Assembly: GCF_053078305.1 (NCBI RefSeq)
Contig: NZ_CP166879.1
DNA length: 64,000 bases
Strand: one strand, 5' to 3'
The position numbers were made by a program, and so were the translations under genes. The notes under the pieces were generated by a model, which did not search any database, was not told the DNA's origin, and was given only the letters and a program-made list of their open reading frames with translations. Positions 56,619-56,901 of the stretch are shown here, piece after piece (within the stretch, counting starts at the first letter, position 1; each line of letters begins with the position of its first letter).

Positions 56619-56683
56619 TCTTTCCTCCGGGGAAAAACAGAAAAACGTCAGCAATCCTCCCGGTAAGAATGGAGGCGGCAGGG

Positions 56684-56811
56684 AAAATGTTTACCGCTGC
56701 CCTGTAAACATTTTGCGAAAAAAAGGTATAAACATTTACCTCCCACAACGTTATGAATAAAAAGAAAAAAACGGTAAAAATCCATCAGTAGGTTATAAAC
56801 ATGTTTATAAC
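56684..56811. promoter_or_regulatory. candidate packaging site (cos/pac) with repeated TAAACAT motifs
   Basis: aaaatgtttacc (56684), tgtaaacatttt (56704), ggtataaacatttacc (56725), palindrome ggttataaacatgtttataac (56791) between HNH and TerS. Confidence 0.4.
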
Positions 56812-56901
56812 TTCTGAAGGGGAATTTTTTCTCTGCGTGAGAGGGGGCGCGGTGTCCGGAGCGATCGTTTTTTACGCCGGATGATACCCCCCCGGGTCGG
56901 G

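Follow-up and report, generated by a model that had tools for sequence, protein, structure and literature searches.

Introduction

Two well-described packaging systems frame the analysis presented here. In phage lambda, the cohesive-end site (cos) is laid out as cosN–I2–cosB, the last with the order R3–I1/IHF–R2–R1 (PMC4856287, PMC6739421). HK97 leaves a 10-nt 3′ overhang, its HNH protein stimulates cos cleavage, and its small terminase (TerS), while DNA moves through the TerS ring, recognises a single 15-bp A-tract-containing site at +15 to +29 by means of an "arginine clamp" (PMC11331095). A closer relative of the locus, the Shiga toxin 1 (Stx1) phage Lys8385Vzw, was sequenced from induced particles and classified by PhageTerm as a cos phage with 10-nt 3′ cohesive ends, CGCCCCCCCT (PMC7946995). 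Here we describe a 64,000-nt stretch of contig NZ_CP166879.1 (NCBI RefSeq assembly GCF_053078305.1; hereafter the window), in which positions 56619–56901 are exactly the 283-bp intergenic gap between an HNH endonuclease gene and terS, with the genes on the minus strand. Sequence comparison leads us to read this interval, with a probability of roughly 75%, as the cos site of an E. coli lambdoid prophage that would be packaged by an HK97-like machine of HNH, TerS and large terminase (TerL), the repeats in the interval being cosB-like TerS sites.

How small terminases choose viral DNA is still debated, and sequence-specific recognition by the helix-turn-helix (Terminase_2) family has proved hard to demonstrate. 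The phage family concerned is very common in E. coli and includes many Shiga-toxin phages, which gives it medical relevance.

Predicted cut and conserved core

The GenBank record of Lys8385Vzw (MT225100) ends on its decamer, 59 nt past the HNH stop codon, and restarts with CTCACGCAGAGAAAAAATTCC, 229 nt ahead of terS. The window carries CGCGCCCCCT followed directly by CTCACGCAGAGAAAAAATTCC at the same place, its decamer matching that of Lys8385Vzw in 9/10 bases. Nicks are predicted between 56842 and 56841 on the minus strand and between 56851 and 56852 on the plus strand, and the virion left end would start at 56841, running towards terS. Three features define this part of the interval:

56842–56851, minus strand: predicted 10-nt 3′ cohesive end, CGCGCCCCCT on the gene strand, by homology to Lys8385Vzw
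56821–56867, minus strand: conserved cos core, equivalent of lambda cosN, CGATCGCTCCGGACACCGCGCCCCCTCTCACGCAGAGAAAAAATTCC on the gene strand
56887–56893, minus strand: poly-G tract, G7 on the gene strand, 45 nt upstream of the predicted cut

Counted from the predicted left end (+1 = window 56841), the G+C-rich core is 92–97% identical from −16 to +22 across the two motif types and the satellite islands described below. The sequence can still be made out in Salmonella, Kluyvera, Kosakonia, Citrobacter, Phytobacter, Pantoea, Erwinia, Buttiauxella, Serratia and Proteus. A conserved GAGAAAAAATTCC occupies +9 to +21 and includes an A-tract at +12 to +19. An earlier sequence-only reading had proposed a packaging site here on the strength of clustered repeats; the interval stands, since the mapped ends of the homologue fall inside it, but the predicted cut is 35 bp upstream of the repeats rather than among them, in the G+C-rich core, to which that reading had not drawn attention.

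The cohesive-end decamer is polymorphic among relatives (CGCGCCCCCT, CGCCCCCCCT, CGCGCCCCGT and CGCCCCCCGT), so that ends from different prophages would anneal imperfectly. Relatives that are otherwise nearly identical differ in the G-run between the HNH stop codon and the core, which has 7 to 11 G. Lys8385Vzw was the only phage record found to start at cos, the 90-odd other matches being prophage-ordered records.

Repeat array

TAAACAT occurs 14 times in the window, and 5 of the 14 copies lie within 121 bp (56687–56807), at 56687–56693 (−), 56705–56711 (+), 56729–56735 (+), 56796–56802 (+) and 56801–56807 (−). These five copies make up four sites. At least three copies were seen in 0 of 20,000 dinucleotide-preserving shuffles of the interval, and two copies in just 15, so the cluster in both orientations that the sequence-only reading had picked out in the HNH–terS gap is beyond shuffle chance. 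A look-elsewhere control based on the most frequent 7-mer of each shuffle was uninformative, homopolymer runs dominating it. The palindrome singled out in that reading, ggttataaacatgtttataac, is perfect over 20 bp (GTTATAAACA/TGTTTATAAC, 56792–56811) and not over 21. AAAATGTTTAC/GTAAACATTTT (56684–56694/56704–56714) form a perfect 11-nt inverted repeat with a gap of 9 nt. With positions again counted from the predicted left end, the array consists of:

56792–56811, both strands: site 1, perfect 20-bp palindrome GTTATAAACATGTTTATAAC, half-sites at +35 and +40
56727–56737, minus strand: site 2, AAATGTTTATA on the gene strand, half-site at +107
56704–56714, minus strand: site 3, AAAATGTTTAC on the gene strand, half-site at +131
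56684–56694, minus strand: site 4, GTAAACATTTT on the gene strand, half-site at +149, inverted relative to site 3

The sites lie 65–190 bp upstream of the terS start and on the first-packaged side of the predicted cut. Two further elements separate site 1 from site 2:

56759–56783, minus strand (gene strand): phased T-tracts at +62, +71 and +79
56746–56758, minus strand: IHF-like core ATTCATAACGTTG at +84 to +96, two mismatches to WATCARNNNNTTR, a weak candidate

T-tract positions are kept in both motif types and in the satellites while the neighbouring sequence differs, and the phased tracts probably constitute an intrinsic bend between the two sites. The IHF-like core has one mismatch in T-type relatives, and alignment and scanning both show the element ATTCAKNNNGTTG to be positionally conserved. 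The interval yielded neither a sigma-70-like promoter nor a terminator; its sole Rfam match, at 14.7 bits where the gathering score is 174.8, was no better than chance, and its predicted RNA fold was not unusual (z-score −1.4).

Motif types and selection on the sites

Relatives of the locus fall into two types, defined by the repeat: A-type, TAAACAT, which is rare and includes the window, and T-type, TTAACAT, which is common. An alignment of 48 distinct upstream regions from IMG/VR with Lys8385Vzw placed the sites at the same four positions in all of them, with the motif TTAACAT and the palindrome CAGTTAACATGTTAACTG. Across 88 loci, half-sites occur at +35/+40, +106–109, +129–132 and +147–150; the +35 position is invariant, site 4 always follows site 3 by 18 bp, and conservation ends just past site 4. 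The five half-sites of a locus are always of one type, with mixing in 0/88 loci. Among 5,426 complete E. coli genomes, 10 carry the TAAACAT type and about 1,100 carry TTAACAT-type prophages. The TAAACAT type itself comprises two sublineages, one being the group of the window and the other 2012C-4221 with CFIAFB20140388. Site and spacer identities compare as follows:

Two TAAACAT sublineages: sites 49/49 identical, spacers 73%
T-type phage and satellite: sites 96%, spacers 62%
A-type and T-type: sites 73–78%, spacers 56–62%

Differences between types cluster at the switched base and its immediate flanks. Because site identity exceeds spacer identity within each type, the comparison indicates purifying selection on the sites of either type, the five half-sites differing alike between types.

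The coexistence of two types bears on the idea that a host factor such as IHF or Fis binds or bends DNA at TAAACAT. Three things would suit it: the A+T-richness of the region, an IHF-like match, cATCAGtaggTTA, overlapping the palindrome edge on the plus strand, and the use of IHF by lambda cosB (PMC4856287, PMC6739421). However, TAAACAT and TTAACAT coexist in one host species, and each is internally uniform and linked to its own TerS allele. Such a pattern is not one that a host factor would produce, which makes a host factor very improbable as the motif reader. The match at the palindrome edge (56783–56795) is missing from T-type phages and was rejected as a general feature. The element of T-tracts and ATTCAKNNNGTTG between sites 1 and 2 may mark an intrinsic bend or one made by a host factor, yet it is distinct from the motif. 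The suggestion of host-factor bending sites, made in the sequence-only reading for the repeats, thus does not suit the motif and may fit this other element.

A third, strongly diverged E. coli-type cos region was seen in a metagenome and in E. coli GCA_003287845.1. It has the core CCCCCCCTCATTTGCAGAAAAAATTCC, an imperfect palindrome (GTTAACATGTTAAT) and an extra TGTTAAC copy between sites 3 and 4, and its TerS carries R19/T25/E30/T32/V35.

Co-variation with TerS

The N-terminal domain of the window TerS was modelled with AlphaFold2 as a monomer with pLDDT >92 for residues 1–50 and helices at 4–14, 19–25, 30–41 and 44–56; the C-terminal half is of low confidence. The domain can be aligned to the DNA-binding domain of SF6 G1P (PDB 4zc3, 2cmp, 3zqp). 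Its helix-turn-helix is encoded at:

56496–56564, minus strand: TerS residues 19–41 (helix 2, 19–25; recognition helix 3, 30–41)
56523–56525, minus strand: Ser32 codon
56514–56516, minus strand: Cys35 codon

Co-variation was assessed by searching 86 loci for protein columns that separate the two motif types completely. Such columns were found in TerS at residues 19, 25, 30, 32 and 35, at the start codon and at two linker columns. No separating column was found among these loci in HNH (37 variable columns), TerL (93) or YlcI (29), the last encoded by a divergent neighbouring gene.

These counts weigh against the possibility that HNH or TerL reads the repeats while TerS binds just the A-tract beside the cut, as in HK97. 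HNH and TerL are the nucleases that must act on cos, and the site bound by HK97 TerS, +15 to +29 beside the cut, has a counterpart here in the conserved GAGAAAAAATTCC at +9 to +21. Against this stand the 37 and 93 variable HNH and TerL columns, none of which co-varies with the motif, the placement of the co-varying residues in the TerS helix-turn-helix, and the lack of relationship between the window TerS and HK97 gp1. We consider this division of roles unlikely, and favour TerS as the reader of the repeats.

Natural chimeras were then collected by protein search and their contigs compared. TerS residues and motifs combine as follows:

K19/A25/E30/T32/V35: TTAAC
R19/T25/E30/T32/V35: TTAAC, in the strongly diverged cos with an extra site
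R19/E25/A30/S32/C35: TAAAC
T32/S35 (Serratia marcescens and two metagenome contigs): TTAAC at +35

Proteus and one Pantoea lineage (T32/V35) have GTTAAC at +35, and nine other S32 lineages have RTAAAC there. Across lineages, the motif does not follow residue 30 or 35. The chimeras rule out residues 19 and 30 as specificity residues and show that 35 is not required; residue 25 stays a candidate. Through these natural chimeras the determinant narrows to residue 32. Thr32 accompanies TTAAC in 7/7 lineages and Ser32 accompanies TAAAC in 12/13 (20 lineages from at least 12 genera; Fisher's exact p = 1e-4, calculated on lineages that are not phylogenetically independent).

Satellites and compact relatives

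In about 50 of the 5,426 complete E. coli genomes, the poly-G tract and the core occur together with four normally spaced TTAACAT sites, and neither an HNH gene nor terS lies beside them. Three such islands were inspected. Each is 10–11 kb long with cos at the island edge, and they encode an integrase, a helix-turn-helix regulator, an Icd-like gene, a RepA-type helicase and a capsid or protease-capsid homologue. The island of E. coli 042 (NZ_CP042934.2, ~948.5 kb) lies beside clpS and that of F2_407_2_2 at tRNA-Pro by yejO. Satellite spacers are 62% identical to T-type phages and 62% to the window; the sites are nonetheless T-type. Retention of core and sites while spacers diverge is expected of a cis-acting packaging signal, and the islands look like phage satellites borrowing the cos of this phage family. 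The "terminase small subunit" of one island showed no similarity to the window TerS and looks Nu1/Rpp-like in sequence. We found no published description of these E. coli islands. A YlcI/YnfO family member is also among the proteins encoded by the E. coli 042 island.

Compact cos regions occur in Salmonella phage FSL SP-016, Kluyvera, Kosakonia, Citrobacter, Pantoea, Erwinia, Serratia and others. In these relatives terS begins ~38–40 nt past the predicted cut, and a lone +35 half-site (GTTAAC/RTAAAC) overlaps its start codon, reading GGAGGGTGTAAACATG or ...TATTAACATG. Some compact relatives have GTAAACAT ~30 nt upstream of the cut. Set against them, the E. coli/Stx type looks expanded by ~190 bp, the gain comprising the T-tracts, sites 2–4 and the second half of site 1.

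This expansion raises the question of whether local duplications of the terS start region simply left the repeats behind, without function. The apparent ~190 bp expansion would suit such an origin, as would the positional homology of the +35 half-site plus ATG with the terS start of compact relatives. Remnants, however, would have to account for sites conserved at 96–100% against 62–73% for spacers, for a spacing fixed in 88 loci, for five half-sites changed in concert and for satellites that retain the sites. We regard the remnant explanation as extremely improbable.

Overlap with the start codon in compact relatives (GGAGGGTGTAAACATG) also means that binding at +35 could repress translation, and a palindrome is typical of a dimeric repressor. 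The repeats might accordingly be gene-regulation operators, bound by TerS or another repressor acting on terS or by the ribbon-helix-helix-like YlcI/YnfO, whose DUF3950/YlcI gene is divergent just upstream of HNH. In the window, however, the interval lacks a promoter or terminator and the sites lie 65–190 bp upstream of the terS start; the satellites keep all four sites at the island edge with no gene downstream. The identical YlcI protein WP_000095744.1 occurs with both motif types, and no YlcI column discriminates between them. Autoregulation by TerS would add to a packaging role rather than replace it. Operators in place of packaging sites are quite improbable on this evidence; autoregulation beside packaging is a possible additional role of TerS, because the +35 half-site overlaps the terS start codon in compact relatives.

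Genomic context

The order HNH–gap–terS–terL is kept in all relatives, and the Pfam matches of the window genes agree with the HNH–TerS–TerL arrangement that the sequence-only reading had recognised next to the interval:

56902–57267, minus strand: HNH endonuclease gene directly upstream of cos (open reading frame (ORF); Pfam PF01844 HNH, E = 7.5e-7)
56061–56618, minus strand: terS, small terminase, 185 aa, Terminase_2 family (ORF, Pfam)
54403–56064, minus strand: terL, large terminase, 553 aa (Pfam TerL_ATPase and TerL_nuclease)
52402–54339, minus strand: prohead protease/major capsid fusion gene, 645 aa, after terL (Pfam Peptidase_S78 and Phage_capsid)

A 99%-identical E. coli record labels the product of the HNH ORF "HNH endonuclease". 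The terS ATG is at 56618 with a GGAGG ribosome-binding sequence ahead of it, and TerS matches Pfam Terminase_2 (PF03592) over residues 2–59 with E = 2.4e-8 and 35.1 bits (cut-off 26.1).

Prophages in a few complete E. coli genomes match the packaging module at 99% identity, strains FHI_NMBU_10 and STEC1587 being 99% identical across it, and the head modules of many Shiga-toxin phages (among them BP-4795, 2851, Stx1a and Stx2c prophages) match its DNA at 85–88%. The HNH–terS intergenic region alone reaches just 74–76% identity. In the 99% relative, the prophage around the module has a complete lambdoid late region, and no stx gene was seen in its equivalent region. A 655-aa ORF upstream of the lysis genes (60970–62937, minus strand) is labelled SASA family carbohydrate esterase in that relative; a SASA-type ORF in this position is typical of Stx-phage late regions. 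The DUF3950/YlcI–YnfO family gene lies at 57309–57509 on the plus strand, divergent and just upstream of HNH.

Discussion

The arrangement suggests a mechanism in which TerL, with help from HNH, would nick both strands within the G+C-rich core and leave the 10-nt 3′ overhang CGCGCCCCCT. Packaging would run from 56841 towards terS, that is, to lower window coordinates. The helix-turn-helix domains of a TerS oligomer would read the palindrome at +35/+40 and the sites at +107, +131 and +149, while the T-tract bend between sites 1 and 2, possibly with IHF, would fold the DNA for joint engagement of the sites. The terminase would thereby be anchored at a fixed distance from the cut, with TerL and HNH placed on the core. 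Specificity would be set mainly by residue 32 of the recognition helix, Ser32 pairing with T-A-AACAT and Thr32 with T-T-AACAT. That the repeats are TerS recognition elements, as the sequence-only reading had offered among its options, gains support from the co-variation with the recognition helix and from the retention of the sites on satellites.

Several points weigh against this interpretation. Sites 2–4 may be accessory, since compact relatives have one half-site, and the +35 element may partly reflect a constraint from translation initiation. By analogy with HK97, the conserved A-tract at +12 to +19 could be the primary TerS anchor. SF6-type helix-turn-helix small terminases are reported to bind DNA largely without sequence specificity. 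One lineage, Serratia sp. M24T3 with Rouxiella, breaks the residue-32 rule by combining Ser32 with TTAAC, and the phylogenetic dependence among the lineages of the Fisher test counts on the same side. The helix-turn-helix codons are ~100–170 bp from the sites, so that linkage adds to co-inheritance; the chimeras and cross-genus cases reduce this concern without removing it. Finally, among 50,697 phage records none was seen that represents a full-length A-type phage.

If TerS does read the repeats, the A-type may represent a switch of packaging specificity, in which essentially one Ser/Thr change in the TerS recognition helix and a concerted T-to-A change in five half-sites would allow this lineage to escape satellites and competing prophages with the common TTAACAT cos. 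This scenario is speculative and on balance doubtful, although the counts fit it (~50 satellite-type, ~1,100 TTAACAT prophage and 10 TAAACAT among 5,426 genomes). If true, it would provide a natural one-residue/one-base recognition code for a Terminase_2 small terminase, shaped by an arms race between phages and satellites. Independently of that scenario, two natural alleles that differ by one base per half-site and essentially one helix residue make recognition a directly testable question. The locus is ordinary as a category, but it offers a clean case from nature of a small terminase co-evolving with its DNA sites. The predicted position of the virion end aids the annotation of Stx prophages, and the result points to chromosomal islands that appear to borrow this cos.

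A cos between HNH and terS is expected for a module of this kind, and the cut is already published for one family member. The repeats are not described in the Lys8385Vzw paper (PMC7946995), and the palindrome string was not found in the literature searched. Nor did we find there a description of the four-site array, of the two specificity alleles or of a link to TerS residue 32.

Among known systems, HK97 shares the order HNH–cos–terS–terL and a homologous TerL (24% identity over 207 aa, E = 2e-6; BLASTP with the N-terminal 219 aa of HK97 TerL). In both loci a G-run leads into ATCA, the cut (mapped in HK97, predicted here) comes after 42 nt in HK97 and after 44–45 nt in the window, and an A/T-tract lies beyond it. 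The recognition side differs: HK97 gp1 has no sequence similarity to the window TerS (E = 16), which belongs to Terminase_2, and the one site of HK97 contrasts with four helix-turn-helix-type repeats over +35 to +155 here. The module thus resembles that of HK97 at the cut and departs from it in the family of its recognition subunit.

Lambda offers a likeness of layout. In both systems the cut, which is predicted here, is followed by a spacer of ~35 bp and several sites in both orientations, bound by TerS in lambda and candidates for TerS binding here, on the first-packaged side and upstream of terS, with a bend between the first and second site that is predicted here from the T-tracts. The parts differ, lambda TerS being the winged-helix dimer Nu1 and the window TerS a PF03592 helix-turn-helix protein; lambda has 12-nt 5′ overhangs, whereas 10-nt 3′ overhangs are predicted here, and an HNH gene is part of the module in the window. 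No sequence homology of the repeats to the lambda R sites was seen. Likening the array to lambda cosB is an analogy built from unrelated parts, not a claim of membership. Lambda and phage 21 reportedly differ in allelic pairs of TerS recognition helix and site that define their packaging specificities (work of the Feiss laboratory), and by analogy the two motif/TerS alleles described here may correspond to the lambda and 21 specificities.

The nearest systems, Lys8385Vzw and the Stx phages (BP-4795, 2851, Stx1a/Stx2c), have a homologous module with about 86–88% DNA identity, a common cos core and the same four-site layout, and differ in pairing TTAACAT with a Thr32/Val35 TerS where the window pairs TAAACAT with Ser32/Cys35. 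SF6 and SPP1 G1P share the Pfam family and the N-terminal helix-turn-helix, but these are pac (headful) phages, whereas the window TerS belongs to a cos system with short defined repeats. P4 and the cos-type staphylococcal pathogenicity islands (SaPIs; SaPIbov5) carry the cos of their helper, and the E. coli 042-type islands parallel the SaPIs that exploit HNH–cos helpers: they carry a whole T-type cos and a capsid-protein homologue, without adjacent HNH, terS or terL.

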